Positions 1 to 11,078 of a stretch of 11,078 nt of DNA are shown here, in pieces (the first letter of the stretch is position 1; the number at the start of each line of letters is the position of its first letter). The translations under genes were made by a program, and so were the position numbers. The stretch is from a virus (taxonomy: Duplodnaviria > Heunggongvirae > Uroviricota > Caudoviricetes): positions 1 to 11,078 of the IMG/VR virus record IMGVR_UViG_2534681663_000021; one strand, 5' to 3'. A model generated the notes under the pieces. The model searched no databases, had not been told where the DNA came from, and worked only from the letters and a program-made list of their open reading frames with translations.

Positions 1-1197
1 ATGGCTCTAACCGATATACAAATCAAACGCGCAAAACCACAAGACAAACCATATACAATGAATGATGGGCAAGGCTTGTCATTACTCATCAATCCAGACG
101 GCTCAAAGGGATGGCGATTCCGCTTTCGTTTTGCCGGTAAAGCGCGGTTAATGTCATTTGGTAGTTACGATCTTGTAAGCCTCGCGGAAGCACGTGAGAA
201 ACGCGATACGGCACGTAAACAGGTTGCAAACGGCATTGATCCAGCAGAAGAACGTAAGGCTCAGAAAATTGCTCAGAAATTATCAACTGAAAACTCTTTT
301 GAGGCCGTTAGCAGAGAATGGCATGCAACAAAAGCAGATCGCTGGACTTTAGCTTATCGCGAAGAAATTATTAAAACATTTGAACAGGATGTTTTTCCTT
401 TCATTGGTAAACGGCCAATAGCTGAAATTAAACCCCTAGAACTGCTTGAAGTTCTTAAACGCATAGAAAAACGTGGAGCGTTGGAGAAAACCAGAAAAGT
501 ACGTCAACGATGCGGAGAGGTGTTTCGCTACGCGATCATCACTGGCCGCGCTGAATACAATCCAGCACCTGATTTAGCTATCGCTCTGGCCGTTCCTAAG
601 CAAAAACACCACCCATTTTTATCTGCCGAAGAATTGCCTTATTTTATTCAAGATCTTGAAGCGTATACCGGAAGCATCATCACTAAAAATGCGACAAAAA
701 TAGTCATGTTAACTGGCGTAAGAACTCAGGAAATGCGCTTTGCCACGTGGGATGAAGTTGACCTTGAGAAAGGAATATGGGAGATTCCAGCTGAAAGGAT
801 GAAAATGCGCAGACCTCATATTGTACCTCTATCTACTCAGGTGATTGCCCTTTTTAAACAGCTCAAGCCTATTAGCGGCCATTATCCCTACATTTTTATA
901 GGTAGAAATAATCGTAGTAAACCTATATCTAAAGAAAGTGTGACACAGGTGATTGAGTTATTAGGCTACAAAGGTCGTGCAACAGGTCATGGGTTCAGGC
1001 ATACCATGTCAACCATTTTGCATGAAAAAGGATTCAATAGTGTATGGATTGAAATGCAATTAGCTCATGTAGATAAAAACACAATTCGAGGCACATATAA
1101 CCATGCACAATATTTAGAGAAAAGGAAAGAAATGATGCAATGGTATAGTGATAGATTATATCCGAAAATGAATATGGAGATATATAATGCACTTTAA
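1..1197 (+). CDS. int: P4-family tyrosine integrase (site-specific recombinase)
   Basis: 398-aa ORF starting MALTDIQIKRAKPQDKPY...GSKGWRFRFRFAGK, the N-terminal pattern of P4-type integrases. C-terminal catalytic region has GHGFRHT (HxxR box) and a downstream Tyr (NHAQY). Sits at the element edge, followed by cos, psu, delta, sid as in a P4 prophage. Confidence 0.9.
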   Translation: MALTDIQIKRAKPQDKPYTMNDGQGLSLLINPDGSKGWRFRFRFAGKARLMSFGSYDLVSLAEAREKRDTARKQVANGIDPAEERKAQKIAQKLSTENSFEAVSREWHATKADRWTLAYREEIIKTFEQDVFPFIGKRPIAEIKPLELLEVLKRIEKRGALEKTRKVRQRCGEVFRYAIITGRAEYNPAPDLAIALAVPKQKHHPFLSAEELPYFIQDLEAYTGSIITKNATKIVMLTGVRTQEMRFATWDEVDLEKGIWEIPAERMKMRRPHIVPLSTQVIALFKQLKPISGHYPYIFIGRNNRSKPISKESVTQVIELLGYKGRATGHGFRHTMSTILHEKGFNSVWIEMQLAHVDKNTIRGTYNHAQYLEKRKEMMQWYSDRLYPKMNMEIYNAL

Positions 1198-2143
1198 ATT
1201 CTACACAACGTTAAGATTTATGAATGTTATAGGGGATAATTTCGATGATTTTGACCTCCTTCCCGGAGTTACTCTAATAAGAGATAGGGCAAAAATTAGA
1301 AAAATAATTAACAAAGATATTAAGCCTTTTACTGGTATCATTGAATATGAACATTTATACAATGCAAATCACATAATTTTTGCCGATCTTAAAGATGATT
1401 TTTTTCAGCCGTCTACAAAAAGCAATTTTGCATTGACGACTTGGCTTTTGTGGATAGATATGCTTATAAATACTTCTTGGTTTATCAAGGATAATGGCAT
1501 GCTTTGCGAAATTGCATATTGCAATAAAACTGATCGCAAAGCATATTCCGAATGGTCGAACAATAGTCTATTAAGTTTATTTACGATGGCAAGCGGTTAT
1601 CGCCATATTGATGTTGAATTTAACAGGAGTGACTTAACTAAGTGGGCAGATATAAACCATCGAGTTCAAACTCACCTATATAATAATAACTCTACTATTT
1701 TTGATTCTTTTGTTGATTCAAAATATTCTCGCTATGGAAGGGCATTGAGTTTTATAAGATCAGCAAAGCGAGATTTCGATCCCGCAATGAAAATATCTCA
1801 CTACTGCAGCGCACTTGAGAGCTTATTCTCAACAGATAGCTCTGAACTTTCTCATAAACTTTCTGAGCGGGTCGCTATTTTCTTAAAACCATATAACTTT
1901 GATCCTATCACTACATTTGATGAAATAAAGTCATTCTATAACATTCGCTCTAAAGTTACTCATGGTGACAGTTTAAAATCATCTAAAGTTGGAAAACTAC
2001 CAGAGGAAAGCATTAAACTTGATAATTATTTAAGAGAAATAATGAATATAATAATAAACTCTGATGAGTTGATGGGTGTATTCAATGGTGATAAGGATAG
2101 CTTTGAAAGCTACTTCAAGAAAAAATTATTGCTTGGCATTTAA
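1187..2143 (+). CDS. AT-rich cargo protein of unknown function in the int-to-cos variable slot; candidate HEPN-like defence/abortive-infection protein
   Basis: 318-aa ORF whose ATG overlaps the int stop by 11 bp, with GGAG 7 nt upstream. Markedly AT-rich against a GC-rich backbone. C-terminal motif NIRSKVTHG is R-x4-H, flanked by predicted helical segments (ISHYCSALESLFS, LSHKLSERVAIFL). No homology search was possible. Confidence 0.6.
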   Translation: MHFKFYTTLRFMNVIGDNFDDFDLLPGVTLIRDRAKIRKIINKDIKPFTGIIEYEHLYNANHIIFADLKDDFFQPSTKSNFALTTWLLWIDMLINTSWFIKDNGMLCEIAYCNKTDRKAYSEWSNNSLLSLFTMASGYRHIDVEFNRSDLTKWADINHRVQTHLYNNNSTIFDSFVDSKYSRYGRALSFIRSAKRDFDPAMKISHYCSALESLFSTDSSELSHKLSERVAIFLKPYNFDPITTFDEIKSFYNIRSKVTHGDSLKSSKVGKLPEESIKLDNYLREIMNIIINSDELMGVFNGDKDSFESYFKKKLLLGI

Positions 2144-2168: not shown

Positions 2169-2187
2169 GTGCTTTCCCCGCCTCGCC
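2169..2187. other. cos site: P2/P4 19-nt cohesive-end sequence
   Basis: Plus strand reads GTGCTTTCCCCGCCTCGCC, the exact reverse complement of the P2/P4 cohesive end GGCGAGGCGGGGAAAGCAC. Located between the integrase-side cargo and psu, as in P4. Confidence 0.75.
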
Positions 2188-2351: not shown

Positions 2352-2924
2352 TTACACAGACTGACGTGATGCCAGTTCTGCACTTTTACGCGAAAAAATC
2401 ATGTTCTGCGCAGGGGTGAATTTTTCACGGCTGTCATCCACCGAAGCCGCGTCAGGCCTGAATCCGATGGTCGTTAAAATGTCGCTATCCTGTGCGGAAT
2501 AATTAATTTTTTCACCCTTCGCAAGCCAGGACAGGAGGGCTTCACGCAAAGCATCTGTGGCACGCTGTATGGCACAGTTTCGGGCAATGGCCGTCAGCTC
2601 ACTGTAGCCCATCAGCTCCGGTGCCAGTGCGGCCGCCAGTGCTGTGCCGTGCTGCTGCATAAAATCATTCAGCCGCTCGCGGATGCTGATGTGCTGAACG
2701 GCTTCATGCGAACGAATATAACGACCGGCGGCCTGATTCACCTGCCATTTTCTGACTTCGATAATATTGCGTAATTCGTCCAGGCGGCTGACGTTTCTGC
2801 CTTCTCCTGACAGAAGCCGCAGATATTCCTGTTCGGCCGCTGCCAGCTCATTTTTGCGTTGCAGCCATGCCGCTTTGTTATTCTGGCAGACCTCAAAAGC
2901 CTGCTGTAATGACATTGTGGTCAC
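2352..2924 (-). CDS. psu: Polarity suppression protein Psu (capsid decoration / Rho antagonist)
   Basis: 190-aa ORF, matching P4 Psu in length. Sequence (MTTMSLQQAFEVCQNNKAAWLQRKNELAAAEQEYLRLL...) matches my recollection of P4 Psu. AGGAGA RBS upstream. Last gene of the sid-delta-psu late operon. Confidence 0.85.
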   Translation of the reverse strand: MTTMSLQQAFEVCQNNKAAWLQRKNELAAAEQEYLRLLSGEGRNVSRLDELRNIIEVRKWQVNQAAGRYIRSHEAVQHISIRERLNDFMQQHGTALAAALAPELMGYSELTAIARNCAIQRATDALREALLSWLAKGEKINYSAQDSDILTTIGFRPDAASVDDSREKFTPAQNMIFSRKSAELASRQSV

Positions 2925-2938
2925 ACCCCGTCTCCTGA

Positions 2939-3184
2939 TTAATGGTTGAATGGTGAGCTGTAACAGCCTTTAACTTTTCGGACAACAGCCGGTGCTGTGC
3001 TTGCCGGTGCTGGTTTTTCCTCCGTGACCGGAGAACGAATCACGGCACAAATTGACTCATGCGTTTTAAATGTCGCCGAACAGTAAATATTCTGGCACTG
3101 CAGATAACTTTCTTTGACATTGTCACTCACATACCGGCTGGTGCGAGTATGCGCTGAATGACGACAGAAAGGGCAGCGCATCAT
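2939..3184 (-). CDS. delta: Ogr/Delta-family zinc-finger late-gene transcriptional activator (single-domain form)
   Basis: 81-aa ORF MMRCPFCRHSAHTRTSRYVSDNVKESYLQCQNIYCSATF with the CxxC...CxxC zinc-binding pattern and strong similarity to P2 Ogr (MFHCPLCQHAAHARTSRY...CQNVNCSATF). Lies between sid and psu. Confidence 0.85.
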   Translation of the reverse strand: MMRCPFCRHSAHTRTSRYVSDNVKESYLQCQNIYCSATFKTHESICAVIRSPVTEEKPAPASTAPAVVRKVKGCYSSPFNH

Positions 3185-3914
3185 GACAGCAGTCCTCTGG
3201 CCTTAAGCACTGCTCCCTGCTGGTCTATTTTGTCCTGCCACACCTTGCGCTGTGCCGGTGTGCCTGCCACCTCATAATCCATGTGCGGGAGTGTTGCCGC
3301 TGACAGTCCGGTCAGCCGGAGAACCGGCTCGCCGGTGAGGCTGATTTGCATCTGTTTAATTTTCTGTTCCAGCGATGATTTCACCTGCTGCATGACAGCC
3401 TTTTCCGGTGCGACGTAGCCCTGATGGCCGGTGGTGTTGGCGAGCGGATTTTCCTGTACCAGAATGCTCAGATGCATTGCCCGGACAAGCGCCTCACAGG
3501 TTTCATTCAGGGCGTGTTCCAGCTCATGCTCTGCATACAGACTCAGAAGGTGATGATGTGCCTTCCGGTAGGCGGTGGCCGTGCTGTCACACGCCCCTTT
3601 CAGGCGTTCACGTTCGAAATTCAGCACCACGGCCAGATTGTCATATTCCTGTACCAGCTCCCGGCGTGCCACGCGCTCAATGTGGCGCTGTTTCAGCTCG
3701 TCGCTCAGGACACCACCGGCTGCACGAAAGGCGTGCGCCAGTCGTCAGCGTCGTTTCCGTCGGCCTGCGCCAGCGCATTTTTTTCCTGCTCTGCCCGTTC
3801 AATGGCCGTGACGGTCTCATCCATCAGGCGGGCGTTCTCAAGATGAGCGGCTCTGGCCTTTTCCAGTTGTGCCAGTGCGGGTTGCAGATATTCAGGGATG
3901 GTGTTGTCAGACAT
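3181..3914 (-). pseudogene. sid: sid (external scaffold / capsid size determination) interrupted by a 1-bp frameshift
   Basis: Two minus-strand ORFs: 3705-3914 (MSDNTIPEYLQPALAQLEKARAAH...DDWRT, GAGGAG RBS 7 nt upstream of the ATG at 3912-3914) and 3181-3744 in another frame (AFRAAGGVLSDELKQRHIERVARRELVQEYD...). Together they reconstruct a ~244-aa Sid-like protein if one base is restored near 3730-3735. The total length is one base short of an intact 245-codon gene. Confidence 0.7.
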
Positions 3915-3948
3915 TTTCCGGCTCCTCGTCACTTCAGGTTAAGAAAAT

Positions 3949-3966
3949 TGTGACGTACACCGGACA
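3949..3966. promoter_or_regulatory. TGT-N12-ACA dyad, candidate Delta/Ogr activator site for the divergent late promoters (sid-proximal)
   Basis: TGT at 3949-3951, 12 nt, ACA at 3964-3966. TGT-N12-ACA is the conserved element of P2/P4 late promoters. It would sit near -18 of a minus-strand sid promoter or near -55 of a plus-strand late promoter. Confidence 0.55.
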
Positions 3967-3986
3967 ACAACACGACGCATTGCAGA

Positions 3987-4004
3987 TGTGCCAGCCCTGA
4001 CACA
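3987..4004. promoter_or_regulatory. Second TGT-N12-ACA dyad, candidate Delta/Ogr activator site (about -55 of the sid promoter)
   Basis: TGT at 3987-3989, 12 nt, ACA at 4002-4004; 38 bp from the first dyad. The centre lies about 55 bp upstream of a plausible sid transcription start near 3940. Confidence 0.55.
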
Positions 4005-4465: not shown

Positions 4466-4732
4466 ATGCAAGCTGTTTTTTCTTCCCCGTCTCCCGCCCC
4501 TGTGACGCCACTGATGCCGCTGCCGGACATCACGCAGGAGCGTTTTTTACGTCTGCCGGAAGTGATGCACCTGTGCGGCCTGTCACGCTCGACCATCTAC
4601 GAATTCATCCGTAAGGGGGAATTTCCGCCGCAGGTGAGTCTTGGCGGTAAAAATGTGGCCTGGCTGCACTCTGAAGTCACCGCATGGATGGCCGGGCGCA
4701 TTGCCGGACGCAAACGGGGGTACGACGCATGA
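4466..4732 (+). CDS. AlpA-family (phage) transcriptional regulator, HTH
   Basis: 88-aa ORF with [50 protein letters not shown], the AlpA/prophage-regulator HTH signature. GAGG RBS 8 nt upstream. Matches P4 orf88 in length. Confidence 0.8.
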
Positions 4733-5328
4733 TGATGCCTGTTCTGCAAAAAGTCCCTTTTTCTGGCTTGCCTTTTTCCGGCATTTGCGGATATAGTTTT
4801 TCCGCTGCCGCAAAATCGGCAGCCGGGCGTGAGAACCCGAGCAATCTAACGGCGACATATGACGCGCCATGCGTCTTTTTTTGTGTCGCAATCAACGCCA
4901 CAGAGCGCCAGATTATGGTGTGGTGTGTGGTCAGTCGTGCAGATGGCATTCCGTGCATCCTGCCCGCGTCCGCTCATTATGCCGCAGAGTCAATGGTAGC
5001 TCAGGCGGGGCAGCCTCCGGGCTGGCCGGTATCCGTTAGAGCCGGTATTCTCACCCCCGTCTGGGCTATCGCCATCGAGCGTGAGAACTCCGGCGATAGC
5101 GTAACCTGCTATCTAACGGAGGCTGCCATCATGGCTACAACCCTTACCACCTCACACCCTGAATTTGTCTTTGTGTTTGCGGCTGTCCGTCGCGCAGACC
5201 GTCATCCCCGTATCTGTATGCTTCGCACCGTCGCCGGTGATGAACGCAGCGCCCGCCGTTCCCTTGTCCGTGACTATGTGCTCTCCCTTGCTGCCCGTCT
5301 GCCGGTGGTGGAGGTGTCCCGTGCGTAA
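4729..5328 (+). CDS. Hypothetical protein (199 codons), alpha-operon gene
   Basis: ATG overlaps the stop of the AlpA-like gene (ATGA coupling), and its stop overlaps the next start. Length matches P4 orf199. GC-rich region, so coding status rests on operon context only. Confidence 0.5.
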
Positions 5329-5608
5329 TAAAAAAGCCCCTCAGACCGTCTCAGCACGTCATGACGCCCGTGAACACCTCAGCATTGAGGCTTACCATAA
5401 GCTCAACCGCGCCAGCGCCGTATCCCGGTTTGTTGGGGGTGATTTGATTCACCGTGAACTCTCCGGCCTGCATCAGCTCTACATTCCGCATATTTTCAGC
5501 TACCTGAATGAAGATATTGATTTTGTGCTGAATGAGCTGAAAGCCAAAGGCCTGTGCCGCGATTTTCTCGCCCAGCAGAAAGACCGGGGAGACAGGACGC
5601 ATGTTTGA
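5321..5608 (+). CDS. Hypothetical 95-aa protein; possibly the epsilon-like (helper prophage derepression) gene
   Basis: GTG start with GGAGG 6 nt upstream; overlaps the preceding ORF's stop by 8 nt and the next ORF's start. The 95-aa length and position before the 151/106-codon ORFs and alpha fit P4 epsilon, but the identity was not verified. Confidence 0.4.
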
Positions 5609-6526: not shown

Positions 6527-8860
6527 ATGAAAATGAACGTAACCGCCACCGTCAGCCATGCGCTCGGCCACTGGCCGCGTATTCTCCCGGCGCTGGGGAT
6601 TCAGGTGCTGAAAAACCGTCATCAGCCCTGTCCGGTCTGTGGCGGGAGTGACCGCTTCCGTTTTGATGACAGGGAGGGGCGCGGCACCTGGTACTGCAAT
6701 CAGTGTGGTGCCGGTGACGGCCTGAAACTGGTTGAAAAGGTGTTTGGTGTCTCCCCGTCCGACGCGGCCGCAAAGGTGGCTGCCGTGACCGGCAGTCTGC
6801 CCCCGGCTGACCCGGCAGTGACGGCCGCCGCCGTTGCTGAAACAGACGCTGCCCGGAAGAACGCCGCCGCACTGGCACAAACCCTGATGGCGAAAACCCG
6901 TCCCGGAACCGGTAACGCCTACCTGACCCGCAAGGGCTTTCCCGGCCGGGAATGCCGGATGCTGACCGGCACACACAGAGCCGGTGGCGTGAGCTGGCGC
7001 GCCGGTGACCTTGTGGTGCCACTGTATGACGACAGCGGCGAACTGGTTAACCTTCAGTTAATCAGTGCTGACGGCCGTAAGCGCACCCTGAAAGGCGGAC
7101 AGGTCAGGGGCACCTGTCACACCCTTGAAGGACAGAATCAGGCCGGAAAACGTCTGTGGATAGCGGAGGGATACGCGACCGCACTTACCGTGCATCACCT
7201 GACCGGTGAAACGGTGATGGTGGCGCTTTCTTCCGTGAACCTCCTTTCTCTGGCCAGCCTTGCCCGGCAGAAGCATCCGGCCTGTCAGATTGTCCTTGCC
7301 GCAGACCGTGACCTCAGCGGTGACGGCCAGACAAAAGCCGCCGCAGCCGCAGATGCGTGTGAGGGCGTTGTTGCCCTGCCGCCGGTCTTCGGTGACTGGA
7401 ATGATGCCTTCACGCAGTACGGCGGGGAGGCCACCCGTAAGGCCATTTACGATGCCATCCGGCCACCGGCTGAAAGCCCGTTCGACACCATGAGCGAAGC
7501 AGAGTTTTCCGCCATGAGTACCAGCGAAAAGGCCATGCGTATCTATGAGCATTACGGCGAGGCGCTCGCGGTCGATGCCAACGGCCAGCTTCTGTCCCGC
7601 TATGAAAATGGTGTCTGGAAGGTGCTGCCGCCACAGGACTTTGCCCGGGATGTGGCCGGGCTGTTTCAGCGTCTGCGCGCGCCGTTCTCCTCCGGGAAGG
7701 TGGCCTCCGTGGTGGACACCCTGAAGCTGATTATTCCGCAGCAGGAAGCCCCATCCCGCCGCCTGATTGGCTTTCGTAACGGCGTGCTCGACACGCAGAA
7801 CGGCACGTTCCACCCGCACAGTCCGTCACACTGGATGCGCACCCTGTGCGATGTGGATTTCACCCCGCCGGTGGACGGTGAAACGCTGGAAACCCACGCC
7901 CCCGCGTTCTGGCGCTGGCTTGACCGTGCTGCCGGTGGTCGTGCGGAAAAACGCGACGTGATTCTGGCCGCACTGTTTATGGTGCTGGCAAACCGCTACG
8001 ACTGGCAGCTCTTTCTGGAGGTGACCGGTCCCGGCGGCAGCGGCAAAAGTATCATGGCCGAAATAGCCACCCTGCTGGCCGGGGAGGATAACGCCACGTC
8101 GGCCACCATCGAGACGCTGGAATCCCCGCGTGAACGTGCCGCGTTAACTGGCTTCTCACTGATACGCCTGCCGGACCAGGAAAAATGGAGCGGCGACGGT
8201 GCCGGACTCAAGGCCATCACCGGCGGCGACGCGGTGTCCGTTGACCCGAAATACCGGGATGCGTACTCCACGCATATCCCGGCGGTAATTCTGGCCGTGA
8301 ACAATAACCCGATGCGCTTCACCGACCGCAGCGGCGGCGTGTCACGCCGGCGGGTGATTATTCACTTCCCGGAACAGATAGCCCCGCAGGAGCGCGACCC
8401 GCAGCTTAAGGACAAAATCACCCACGAGCTGGCGGTCATCGTGCGTCACCTGATGCAGAAGTTCAGCGACCCGATGCTCGCCCGGTCACTGCTTCAGTCC
8501 CAGCAGAACTCAGACGAGGCGCTGAACATCAAACGGGATGCCGACCCGACGTTTGATTTTATCGGCTATCTGGAAACCCTGCCGCAGACCAGCGGCATGT
8601 ATATGGGGAACGCCAGTATCATCCCGCGCAATTACCGTAAATACCTCTATCACGCCTATCTGGCCTACATGGAGGCAAACGGCTACCGGAATGTACTCAG
8701 TCTGAAAATGTTCGGACTGGGGCTGCCGGTGATGCTGAAGGAATACGGGCTGAATTACGAGAAGCGCCATACCAAACAGGGGATACAGACCAACCTGACG
8801 CTGAAAGAGGAAAGCTACGGCGACTGGCTGCCAAAATGTGACGACCCTGCAACAGCCTGA
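6527..8860 (+). CDS. alpha: Alpha protein: bifunctional primase-helicase with origin-binding C-terminus
   Basis: 777-aa ORF, matching P4 alpha in length. N-terminal zinc ribbon (CPVCGGSDRF...YCNQCGAGDG), TOPRIM-like acidic motifs (LWIAEGYATA; VLAADRDLSGDG), Walker A P-loop (TGPGGSGKS). AGGAGA RBS. Flanked by the TGTTCACC iterons it should bind. Confidence 0.9.
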   Translation: MKMNVTATVSHALGHWPRILPALGIQVLKNRHQPCPVCGGSDRFRFDDREGRGTWYCNQCGAGDGLKLVEKVFGVSPSDAAAKVAAVTGSLPPADPAVTAAAVAETDAARKNAAALAQTLMAKTRPGTGNAYLTRKGFPGRECRMLTGTHRAGGVSWRAGDLVVPLYDDSGELVNLQLISADGRKRTLKGGQVRGTCHTLEGQNQAGKRLWIAEGYATALTVHHLTGETVMVALSSVNLLSLASLARQKHPACQIVLAADRDLSGDGQTKAAAAADACEGVVALPPVFGDWNDAFTQYGGEATRKAIYDAIRPPAESPFDTMSEAEFSAMSTSEKAMRIYEHYGEALAVDANGQLLSRYENGVWKVLPPQDFARDVAGLFQRLRAPFSSGKVASVVDTLKLIIPQQEAPSRRLIGFRNGVLDTQNGTFHPHSPSHWMRTLCDVDFTPPVDGETLETHAPAFWRWLDRAAGGRAEKRDVILAALFMVLANRYDWQLFLEVTGPGGSGKSIMAEIATLLAGEDNATSATIETLESPRERAALTGFSLIRLPDQEKWSGDGAGLKAITGGDAVSVDPKYRDAYSTHIPAVILAVNNNPMRFTDRSGGVSRRRVIIHFPEQIAPQERDPQLKDKITHELAVIVRHLMQKFSDPMLARSLLQSQQNSDEALNIKRDADPTFDFIGYLETLPQTSGMYMGNASIIPRNYRKYLYHAYLAYMEANGYRNVLSLKMFGLGLPVMLKEYGLNYEKRHTKQGIQTNLTLKEESYGDWLPKCDDPATA

Positions 8861-8867
8861 CCCACCT

Positions 8868-8892
8868 GACCGGCATCTGCCGGTCTTTTTTT
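8868..8892 (+). terminator. Rho-independent terminator downstream of alpha
   Basis: GACCGGCA-TC-TGCCGGTC hairpin at 8868-8885 followed by seven T (8886-8892), eight bases after the alpha stop codon. Confidence 0.7.
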
Positions 8893-8910
8893 ATCCCTGA
8901 ATTCCCCGAA

Positions 8911-9002
8911 GGTGAACAATCCACTGTTCACCCTTCACCGTATATTAACCCGTTATCACACTGAAATTAAAAGAGAAAAATGAAAGGTGAACAGTGTGAA
9001 CA
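8911..9002. repeat. crr-like (cis replication region) iteron cluster
   Basis: GGTGAACA at 8911-8918 and 8986-8993, TGTTCACC at 8925-8932, degenerate TGTGAACA at 8995-9002. Same octamer as the ori cluster, located just 3' of alpha as in P4. Confidence 0.7.
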
Positions 9003-9271
9003 ATCAAATCAAAAAAACTTTCTACTCCCACTATAGCCTGACTGGTCGTCTCCAAAACGAGCGGAAAAGCATCAACAATGAATAGTTAACTGTTAACTCC
9101 GCGCCAACTCATTACCACTTAACTCAATGATATTAAATGGAAAACTATCGAAATGAATACTCTGCAAAATTAAATGCAAAAAAATATATGCCAGTCAAAT
9201 TTCGTTACGCACTCTCTTCCAAGAAAGAGATAAATGCTTTATACGTCCACCATACTATGTTATTTTTTTAA

Positions 9272-9446: not shown

Positions 9447-11078
9447 GTGTCTTTACATGACAAGCTACTGATGCTTAGTCTCAATTCGGCGAATAAAGAA
9501 GAAGATGAGACAATCCCGGAGTTACCTAAGTTAGAGCCTCAGCCCTATCAAGCTGGAAATAAGTTGAAATGGGATAATAAAGAGCTGAAAAATCAGCCCA
9601 TCACTTCAAAGAATGACATTAATGTAATATGCAAAAAAATTGAAAACAAAAGCATTGTAATTACATCAGCAAACGATGTAGCCAATCTGTTAGAAGTCCC
9701 GGTCGGACAATTATTATTTATTTTATATAATAAAAAAGATAACTATAGAACTTTTGAAATAAAAAAGAAAAATGGAAAAAGTAGAATCATAAATGCACCT
9801 CAAGGCGGTTTATCAATTCTGCAAGAGAAATTAAAGCCAGTTCTTGAGTACTTTTATCGTCCCAAAAAACCAGCACATGGATTTATTAAGGATAAAAGTA
9901 TATTAACAAATGCAGAAAAACATACAAAGAAAAAATATGTTGTTAATGTAGATTTAGAAAATTATTTTGGTTCAGTCACTTTCGCTAGAGTATATGGGAT
10001 ATTTAAAAGTAAGCCATTTAATTTCTCTCATCCTGCGGCGAGTATATTAGCTCAACTATGTACTAAGGATGGAAAATTACCTCAAGGAGCATGTACCTCC
10101 CCTGTTCTAGCAAATTTAGCATCAGCCTCACTCGATAAACACCTAACCCAACTGGCACGTAGAAAAAACATCACATATACAAGATATGCAGATGATATTA
10201 CTTTTTCATTTAATCAACGACAAGTCAGAGAAATCATAACGCTAGATAATGAAAATAATTTTGAATTGGGCGAGGCGATTATCTCTGTGATAGAGAAAAG
10301 TGGCTTCAGCATAAACACAAGTAAATTCAGAGTTCAGAAAAGAAATGAACGTCAAAAAGTTACTGGTCTAGTGGTAAATGAAAAAGTAAATGTTGAGCGT
10401 AAATATCTTAGAGTTACTCGTTCATTAGTTCATAAATGGAGAGAAGACAAGTTAACATCAGCATTGTTGTTTGTTACTAAAAAAGGTTTTAAGGCAACAA
10501 ATAACGAACATGCTATATCAATTTTTCGCAATCATATTTATGGGCGATTGAGTTTTATAAAAATGATCCGTGGTGAGGACTTCCCGTTATATCTTAAATT
10601 AATGGCTGAAATGAGTCATCATGATCCTTTAAAAACAAAAGAAGGGCTTAGAGCAATGAAAGAAACTGAAACTTACGATGTATTTATTTGTCATGCAAGC
10701 GAAGATAAAACATCCATCGCAATTCCAATTTACGAAGAATTAATTAAATTAAATATATCAACATTCATAGATCATGTTGAAATAAATTGGGGCGATTCAT
10801 TAATCCAAAAAATTAACTCAGCTCTTGTAAAGTCTAAATATGTAATTGCCATTCTTTCGGCTAATTCTGTAGATAAACATTGGCCTAAGAAAGAATTGCA
10901 TTCTGTGCTTGCAAGAGAAATCACTGAAGGTGAAGTAAAATTACTTACTCTTGTAAAAGAAGCAGATGAAGCAATAGTTGCTGAATCTTTGCCGCTCTTA
11001 AGTGATAAGCTTTATATGACCTATAAAGATAATCCGGCAGAAGTTGCAGATAAGGTTCGTGCGCTTTTAAACAAGTGA
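9447..11078 (+). CDS. Reverse transcriptase (retron-type motifs) fused to a C-terminal TIR domain
   Basis: 543-aa AT-rich ORF. RT motifs: NAEKH (NAxxH) followed by YVVNVDLENYFGSV, LPQGACTSPVLANL, RYADDITF (YxDD), KVTGLVVNE (VTG). C-terminal ~130 aa: YDVFICHASEDK...YVIAILSANSVDKHWPKKELHSVLA, a TIR-domain signature that includes the candidate catalytic Glu in KKEL. Confidence 0.85.
   Translation: MSLHDKLLMLSLNSANKEEDETIPELPKLEPQPYQAGNKLKWDNKELKNQPITSKNDINVICKKIENKSIVITSANDVANLLEVPVGQLLFILYNKKDNYRTFEIKKKNGKSRIINAPQGGLSILQEKLKPVLEYFYRPKKPAHGFIKDKSILTNAEKHTKKKYVVNVDLENYFGSVTFARVYGIFKSKPFNFSHPAASILAQLCTKDGKLPQGACTSPVLANLASASLDKHLTQLARRKNITYTRYADDITFSFNQRQVREIITLDNENNFELGEAIISVIEKSGFSINTSKFRVQKRNERQKVTGLVVNEKVNVERKYLRVTRSLVHKWREDKLTSALLFVTKKGFKATNNEHAISIFRNHIYGRLSFIKMIRGEDFPLYLKLMAEMSHHDPLKTKEGLRAMKETETYDVFICHASEDKTSIAIPIYEELIKLNISTFIDHVEINWGDSLIQKINSALVKSKYVIAILSANSVDKHWPKKELHSVLAREITEGEVKLLTLVKEADEAIVAESLPLLSDKLYMTYKDNPAEVADKVRALLNK

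Follow-up and report, generated by a model that had tools for sequence, protein, structure and literature searches.

P4-like satellites have seven core components, int, psu, delta and sid along with alpA, epsilon and alpha (PMC8628076), and the product of one of them, sid, is the protein which makes the helper phage build small heads. In the P4 procapsid, residues 11-137 of Sid make up a 100-Å stem of two helices, which trimerises through contacts of its tip at the threefold axes; the dimer knot comprises residues 139-189, and helix alpha6 (219-224) together with the 161-165 loop binds gpN; redirection of capsid size needs Sid dimers on the hexamers, tied together through trimerisation of their stems (PMC7552001). 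The result of losing sid in P4 is also described. Mutants in this gene, which PMC6893505 attributes to Shore et al. (1978), form no small capsids, package three P4 genomes in P2-size heads with low efficiency and release far more helper phage (PMC6893505). P4 sid1 (ATCC 29746-B1) is nevertheless a usable strain and was used in PMC9122126. A second described case concerns alpA, whose pseudogenes, the ‘Type B’ P4-like variants, occur frequently and are clade-conserved (Moura de Sousa & Rocha 2021, PMC8628076).

The locus described here resembles the sid-null mutants of P4 in the gene itself (99% identical), in the sid-delta-psu operon and in the early premature stop in sid. It is unlike these laboratory mutants in that the change, as assembled, is a natural 1-nt deletion at codon 61/62 of an integrated satellite in a clinical E. 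coli draft genome, and unlike P4 in that the element carries an 81-aa delta and different cargo. With the alpA pseudogenes it shares the feature that a frameshift brings an early stop into one of the seven core components of an otherwise conserved satellite, and this allele of sid fits the described pattern of core-component frameshift pseudogenes in P4-like satellites. The two cases differ in their distribution, since the alpA pseudogenes are clade-conserved, whereas the sid deletion is a singleton and the other sid lesions that we found are rare and lie at different sites. We consider that this is probably a sporadic, strain-specific loss-of-function allele of sid in an otherwise intact P4-like satellite.

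The window, by which we mean the whole stretch of 11,078 nt that was analysed, is an exact substring of the draft contig AQDJ01000060.1 of Escherichia coli 2865200 (GCA_000354975.1). It spans nearly the whole of a P4-like satellite of 11.95 kb, which is inserted at selC, the tRNA-Sec gene. One copy of a 33-nt att repeat overlaps this tRNA gene at its 3' end, and the second copy is 11,953 bp away. The core set of P4-like satellites is co-localised in conserved order, with int, psu, delta, alpA, epsilon and alpha at full length and sid as a pseudogene (Table 1). sid is the first gene of the minus-strand late operon sid, delta, psu, and it is followed on the other side by alpA (88 aa), an Icd-like/ASH protein, epsilon (‘Derepression’, 95 aa), orf151, a DUF5375 protein and alpha. 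For the cos site, the query was a 19-nt sequence which we take to be the cohesive end of P2 and P4.

Table 1. Positions of the main features in the window, including the two open pieces of sid
Feature	Position	Strand	Description
Integrase	1-1197		398 aa, full length
Cargo protein	1187-2143	+	318 aa; named HEPN domain-containing by PGAP in relatives
cos	2169..2187	-	Matches the P2/P4 cohesive-end sequence of 19 nt, GGCGAGGCGGGGAAAGCAC, exactly; 0 mismatches, 0 expected by chance
psu	2352..2924	-	190 aa, intact; third gene of the sid-delta-psu operon
delta	2939..3184	-	81 aa, single Ogr/Delta zinc-finger domain, intact; its ATG overlaps the sid stop (ATGA)
sid pseudogene	3181..3914	-	734 nt instead of 735; ATG at 3914, stop at 3181
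C-terminal ORF of sid	3181..3672	-	163 aa from GTG 3672, equal to Sid 82-244; GenBank EMV86616.1
N-terminal fragment ORF of sid	3705..3914	-	69 aa, Sid 1-61 followed by aberrant PFVQPVVS; GenBank EMV86617.1
Dual-open stretch	3705..3744	-	Between TGA 3747-3745 (downstream frame) and TGA 3707-3705 (upstream frame)
Region upstream of sid	3915..4000	-	86 nt; ribosome-binding site and late-promoter region, within a stretch 99.3% identical to P4
isrK	4804-4881		Immunity RNA
C4/CI RNA	4989-5076		Immunity RNA
alpha primase-helicase	6527-8860		777 aa, full length
Retron type XII RT-TIR	9447-11078	+	NCBIfam Retron_TIR_antiphage, 678 bits (cut-off 600); PADLOC RT-TIR_XII

Besides sid, several parts of the element were compared with P4 and with related satellites. 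The delta gene of the window encodes one domain, while P4 Delta has 166 aa and two domains, and the DNA identity to P4 ends at the sid/delta junction. As a 166-aa delta is present in other close satellites (those of O157, L005 and L007), the late operon is a mosaic. The 318-aa cargo gene is located between the integrase gene, with which it overlaps by 11 nt, and cos, an interval which is the known defence hotspot of P4; its product contains RSKVTH and had no match in Pfam, NCBIfam or PADLOC. The retron XII locus is located downstream of alpha and is flanked by a direct duplication of about 480 bp (89-94% identity; 8463-9017 of the window and 2281-2754 of L003). The duplicated segment comprises the 3' end of alpha and the region downstream of it, which suggests that the retron locus was inserted by recombination at this site.

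The immunity region is another variable part. Among the 79 SNPs which separate the window from its closest relative, 34 fall within 4500-5500, where isrK and the C4/CI RNA are located. A compensated pair of indels, +1 and -1, at 5112 and 5128 (16 nt apart), is located in a SNP-dense patch and inside the Icd-like ORF, and an identical 199-aa Icd-like protein is encoded on one metagenome scaffold (L017) by a satellite with a different delta. Judged by this pattern of variation, the immunity module looks as if it had been recombined.

To describe the lesion in sid, the minus strand of the window from 3181 to 3932 was aligned with the sid genes of P4 (NC_001609) and O157, and exactly one gap appeared in 753 columns. 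The gap is located at 3732..3733 (minus strand), where the sequence is GCGCAC-GG-CCTTTCG in P4 and O157 and GCGCAC-G-CCTTTCG in the window, so one G of a GG pair is gone; all relatives have ACGGCC where the window has ACGCC. The remaining G at 3732 corresponds to sid nt 183/184, at the codon boundary T61/A62, and to about position 78,774 of AQDJ01000060.1. The same loss of a single G was seen in the alignment of the source contig and in the whole-element alignments. When the frame is read from the ATG at 3914, 61 native Sid residues (...DDWRT) are followed by PFVQPVVS and by the TGA at 3707-3705. The -1 frame reads AFRAAGGVLSDELKQRHIERV... as far as the normal sid stop at 3181 and carries Sid residues 62-244, the Sid frame being open downwards from 3731. 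Ahead of the GTG at 3672 there is no convincing Shine-Dalgarno sequence, but GAG only. A first-pass annotation of this DNA had proposed that sid is split by the loss of one nucleotide at 3730-3735 and had quoted a peptide from each of the two frames. The single alignment gap, with the retained G at 3732, bears out the split and its place, and both peptides were read correctly; the only imprecision is that eight aberrant residues separate DDWRT from the stop.

The identity of the gene is equally clear. With one G added back, the repaired Sid aligns from 1-244 to 1-244 with chain E of PDB 7JW1, ‘Size determination protein Sid’ (E = 5e-156), and 242 of 244 residues are identical, the two differences being H4N and E236V. 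The DNA of sid is 99.3% identical to that of P4. Neither Pfam nor NCBIfam provided a Sid model, and the assignment rests on PDB 7JW1 and on the DNA match to P4, a likeness which is not due to chance and which agrees with the name given in the first-pass annotation. There was no second lesion in the sid sequence. An uninterrupted Sid ORF of about 244 aa with stem, dimer knot and gpN-binding helix is absent, and as sequenced the gene is a sid pseudogene.

We then asked how widely the deletion is distributed. For an 81-nt query across the junction, this sid stretch was found in 974 of 5,426 complete E. coli genomes with 1,165 copies, and it turned out that the deleted junction occurs in none of these genomes (0 of 974) and that none of the 1,165 copies is identical to the query. 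The best matches listed for it are 98.8% identical and one base longer. The 34-mer of the deleted junction has no exact match in GTDB (one genome per species), in the JGI metagenomes or in IMG/VR, and the 35-mer of the intact junction is present in 67 IMG/VR loci. At the protein level, the exact 69-aa product was found on one contig among about 15 billion proteins, and the repaired 244-aa protein has an identical copy on at least 1000 contigs. A match over at least 80% of the window was obtained for 13 complete genomes (98.3-99.3% identity); none of the 13 has the sid deletion, and the two which were examined in detail have a full-length sid. The 163-aa C-terminal ORF recurs on more than 20 other contigs, which might be taken for a shared frameshift, but this was rejected as the alignment reveals other lesions there (A7->A6, Q50* and rearrangements). 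Conservation of the same frameshift across related elements, which had been named earlier as a sign of a tolerated or programmed event, was not found, the deleted junction being absent from complete E. coli genomes and from the GTDB, JGI and IMG/VR sets scanned. Since the deletion is present in no other genome, it is a one-off null allele or an assembly error and not a conserved or programmed feature.

The integrity of sid was surveyed in 65 IMG/VR loci with a complete sid region. Most of them (62 of 65) encode a 244-aa Sid, while three (~5%) are broken. Different lesions were found in different satellites: L041 and L051 have 1-nt deletions at sid nt ~300-368, L055 has a 1-nt insertion near nt 138, L005 has an amber codon at Q50, and in L010 and L012 the N-terminal part of sid has been replaced by rearrangement. 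L012 also shares its int, HEPN and 81-aa delta genes with the window. In addition, a run of seven A residues in sid (GGAAAAAAATG, nt 125-131) is shortened to six on at least three sid backgrounds (L004, L006, L007, L009, L011 and L013). The A7->A6 contig of the L007 type is recorded in 20 or more samples and the allele is also present in one finished genome, CP013662.1, while the 81-mer of the L006-type A6 allele has no exact match in complete genomes. The run may be a hot spot at which slippage recurs, or the shortening may be a homopolymer error in some of the assemblies. The A7->A6 allele of E. coli 08-00022 (CP013662.1) is similar to the allele of the window in that a short N-terminal ORF is followed by the same 163-aa ORF with GTG at codon 82. 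It differs in that the change is at another site, in a homopolymer run, and is inherited within a lineage and contained in a finished genome; the window keeps the normal A7. L004 (GCA_016587195.1, ECZU43) has, besides its split sid, a psu split into 103 + 86 aa and a DUF5375 gene of 82 instead of 106 aa, and is either an error-prone assembly or a truly decaying satellite. Lesions of sid are therefore rare, sporadic and heterogeneous, and they behave like the neutral decay of a gene which is used only in transfer.

A frameshift that splits a gene could also be programmed, as the first-pass annotation had considered while remarking that no obvious slippery heptamer is present. As a TGA of the downstream frame is located five codons upstream of the deletion, a -1 shift would be workable only within about 40 nt. 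This overlap, from 3744 to 3705, reads C GAC UGG CGC ACG CCU UUC GUG CAG CCG GUG GUG UCC UGA. In agreement with the remark, it contains no heptamer of the form X XXY YYZ; the nearest sequence, G CCU UUC, is slippery in its A-site half (U UUC) only, and the A AAA AAU run of sid nt 125-131 is outside the overlap. The RNA from 3745 to 3640 folds with z = -1.87, and 11 of 200 shuffled sequences fold as well; the candidate slip site is inside the first hairpin and not upstream of one. All intact sid genes have these very nucleotides in the overlap, and hence no part of it has been selected for shifting. For these reasons, namely the same nucleotides in all intact sid genes and a shift which is not conserved, together with the missing heptamer and an unremarkable fold, a programmed -1 frameshift was rejected: no heptamer exists in the sole workable stretch, and none of the other copies examined has the shift. 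Transcriptional slippage was rejected as well, the longest run at the site being TTT.

A weaker form of this idea is that the split is tolerated and still yields some function. A -1 slip, for example of tRNA-Phe from UUC to UUU in CCU-UUC, would produce a low level of Sid(A62P), or re-initiation at GTG 3672 would produce Sid 82-244, which might act as a Psu-like binder of gpN hexamers. The two frames do overlap by about 40 nt, the stretch contains U-UUC, and a slip there would alter one residue only. Besides, residues 82-244 keep the dimer knot and the gpN-binding helix (PMC7552001), and Sid and Psu share a fold. Against this, the P-site tRNA-Pro would need to re-pair with GCC where an X XXY YYZ heptamer is lacking, the local fold is not unusual and the slip site is within the hairpin, the nucleotides are common to all intact sid genes and the shift is conserved in no relative. 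For the re-initiation product, GTG 3672 is not preceded by a real Shine-Dalgarno sequence, and the 82-244 piece is without helix 1 and the stem tip, which trimerisation requires. We regard a functional split of either kind as very improbable. If it were true, a trickle of Sid(A62P) or a stem-less dimer of Sid 82-244 would attenuate or alter the interference with the capsid, and the satellite would be a naturally ‘tuned-down’ pirate; what argues for such a tuned-down sid is that the frames overlap by 40 nt and that the modules for the dimer and for gpN binding are retained, and we give it hardly any weight.

The question is then whether the G was lost by the strain or by its assembly. In a comparison over 11 kb with the two elements closest to it (99.3% identity), the window has no uncompensated indel inside a gene other than the sid deletion, the only further indels being the compensated pair at 5112/5128. 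All other genes have the same length as in these two relatives, one of which differs in addition by a single T at ~4067, between sid and alpA. On the same contig, 6.1 kb of chromosomal flank is gap-free, equal in length and ~100% identical to several complete genomes, which indicates that the draft is not riddled with indels. An artefact would mean that the strain has an intact 244-aa sid and that one G was dropped from the draft consensus. Such an error would agree with the confinement of the deletion to one draft assembly, with the extreme commonness of the repaired protein and with the lack of a second degenerative change in sid, and the ECZU43 assembly of L004, with several split genes in one element, is consistent with errors being behind some of the sid splits in public data. 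The site itself speaks for a true mutation, for it is a dinucleotide and not the homopolymer run which is usual for consensus indel errors. No further unexplained indel is present in the remaining 11 kb of the element or in the 6.1-kb flank, the compensated pair at 5112/5128 is confirmed by the independent metagenome scaffold which encodes the identical protein, and genuine sid frameshifts do arise and are inherited in other lineages. An assembly error is therefore unlikely in our view, though it is the alternative that we take most seriously.

The allele is known from a single draft assembly of 2013. Neither a clone-mate with the same element nor an independent assembly of the strain was found in the collections, where the exact Icd-like protein is present only on the source contig and on one unrelated metagenome scaffold with intact sid; inheritance of the deletion cannot be shown for this reason. 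The sid lesion can be judged to be very recent, since the repaired protein is identical to an allele of very wide occurrence, sid has no second lesion and the deletion is in no other genome.

If a true loss of sid is accepted, it has to be considered in what kind of element it occurred. The first-pass annotation suggested a decaying satellite retained for its cargo. This suggestion was not supported, as the other core genes are of full length in comparison with relatives that have intact sid, cos, the att repeats and the immunity RNAs are present, and sid itself is free of a second lesion. With the rest of the 11.95-kb satellite intact, the element is not generally decaying. A different proposal is selected domestication, in which the host would retain the satellite for its defence cargo (the HEPN protein and the retron XII RT-TIR), the loss of sid would be favoured for this reason, and the element would be becoming a fixed island. 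The presence of two cargo loci and the independent, recurrent sid lesions in other satellites would be in line with it. However, none of the 13 complete genomes which cover at least 80% of the window has the deletion and full-length sid was seen in both genomes examined; no damage is seen in integrase, att repeats, cos, alpha, epsilon, delta or psu; and about 5% of the sid genes in the sample are broken, with a different site in each, which is the prediction of neutral decay. Furthermore, sid-null alleles are restricted to tip lineages, and one singleton allele cannot show selection. Domestication is accordingly a very unlikely explanation, and the most fitting reading of the lesion is that a gene used only during transfer was recently hit by a neutral change.

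The consequence of such a null allele can be predicted from P4. The break at residue 61 leaves the larger part of the first stem helix detached from the remaining stem and from the dimer knot and the helix that binds gpN. By analogy with the procapsid of P4, neither piece of Sid would be able to build the dodecahedral cage, since the 69-aa peptide would amount to about the first stem helix and the 82-244 piece would be without helix 1 and the tip. The loss of capsid-size redirection, which the first-pass annotation had expected, is thereby supported by the published structure of Sid (PMC7552001), and its second expectation, packaging in full-size heads, corresponds to the published phenotype of sid mutants (PMC6893505).

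The proposed course is as follows. With one G of the GG lost at codon 61/62, ribosomes starting from the sid ATG would make a 69-aa peptide and stop, leaving the remaining three quarters of sid out of frame. Without the cage, the Sid structure and the genetics of sid mutants predict that gpN of the helper would assemble T=7 instead of T=4 heads. Upon induction of the helper, packaging of the satellite, if it occurred, would be inefficient and would place two or three genome copies in P2-size heads (three copies amount to 35.9 kb), and the production of helper phage would presumably no longer be suppressed. Termination 520 nt before delta may also lower the expression of delta and psu through polarity. 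The element should stay inducible and should remain packageable in this inefficient mode, since cos and the att repeats are intact, as are integrase, alpha, epsilon, delta and psu. The phenotype expected for the window is the same as that of the P4 sid-null mutants, with small capsids missing, multimers packaged in P2-size heads with low efficiency, and a larger release of helper. The allele would be a new natural null allele of a well-studied gene, and what it is expected to do has been known since the original sid mutants.

In conclusion, the finding matters little outside annotation and work on isolate 2865200, and the sporadic lesions of sid are mildly useful for surveys of satellite decay, in contrast with the clade-conserved pseudogenes of alpA. 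If the deletion is real, the element would be a natural sid-null satellite, which could neither shrink the capsids of its helper nor suppress the helper yield, and which would transfer its two defence cargoes, the HEPN protein and the retron XII RT-TIR, inefficiently.
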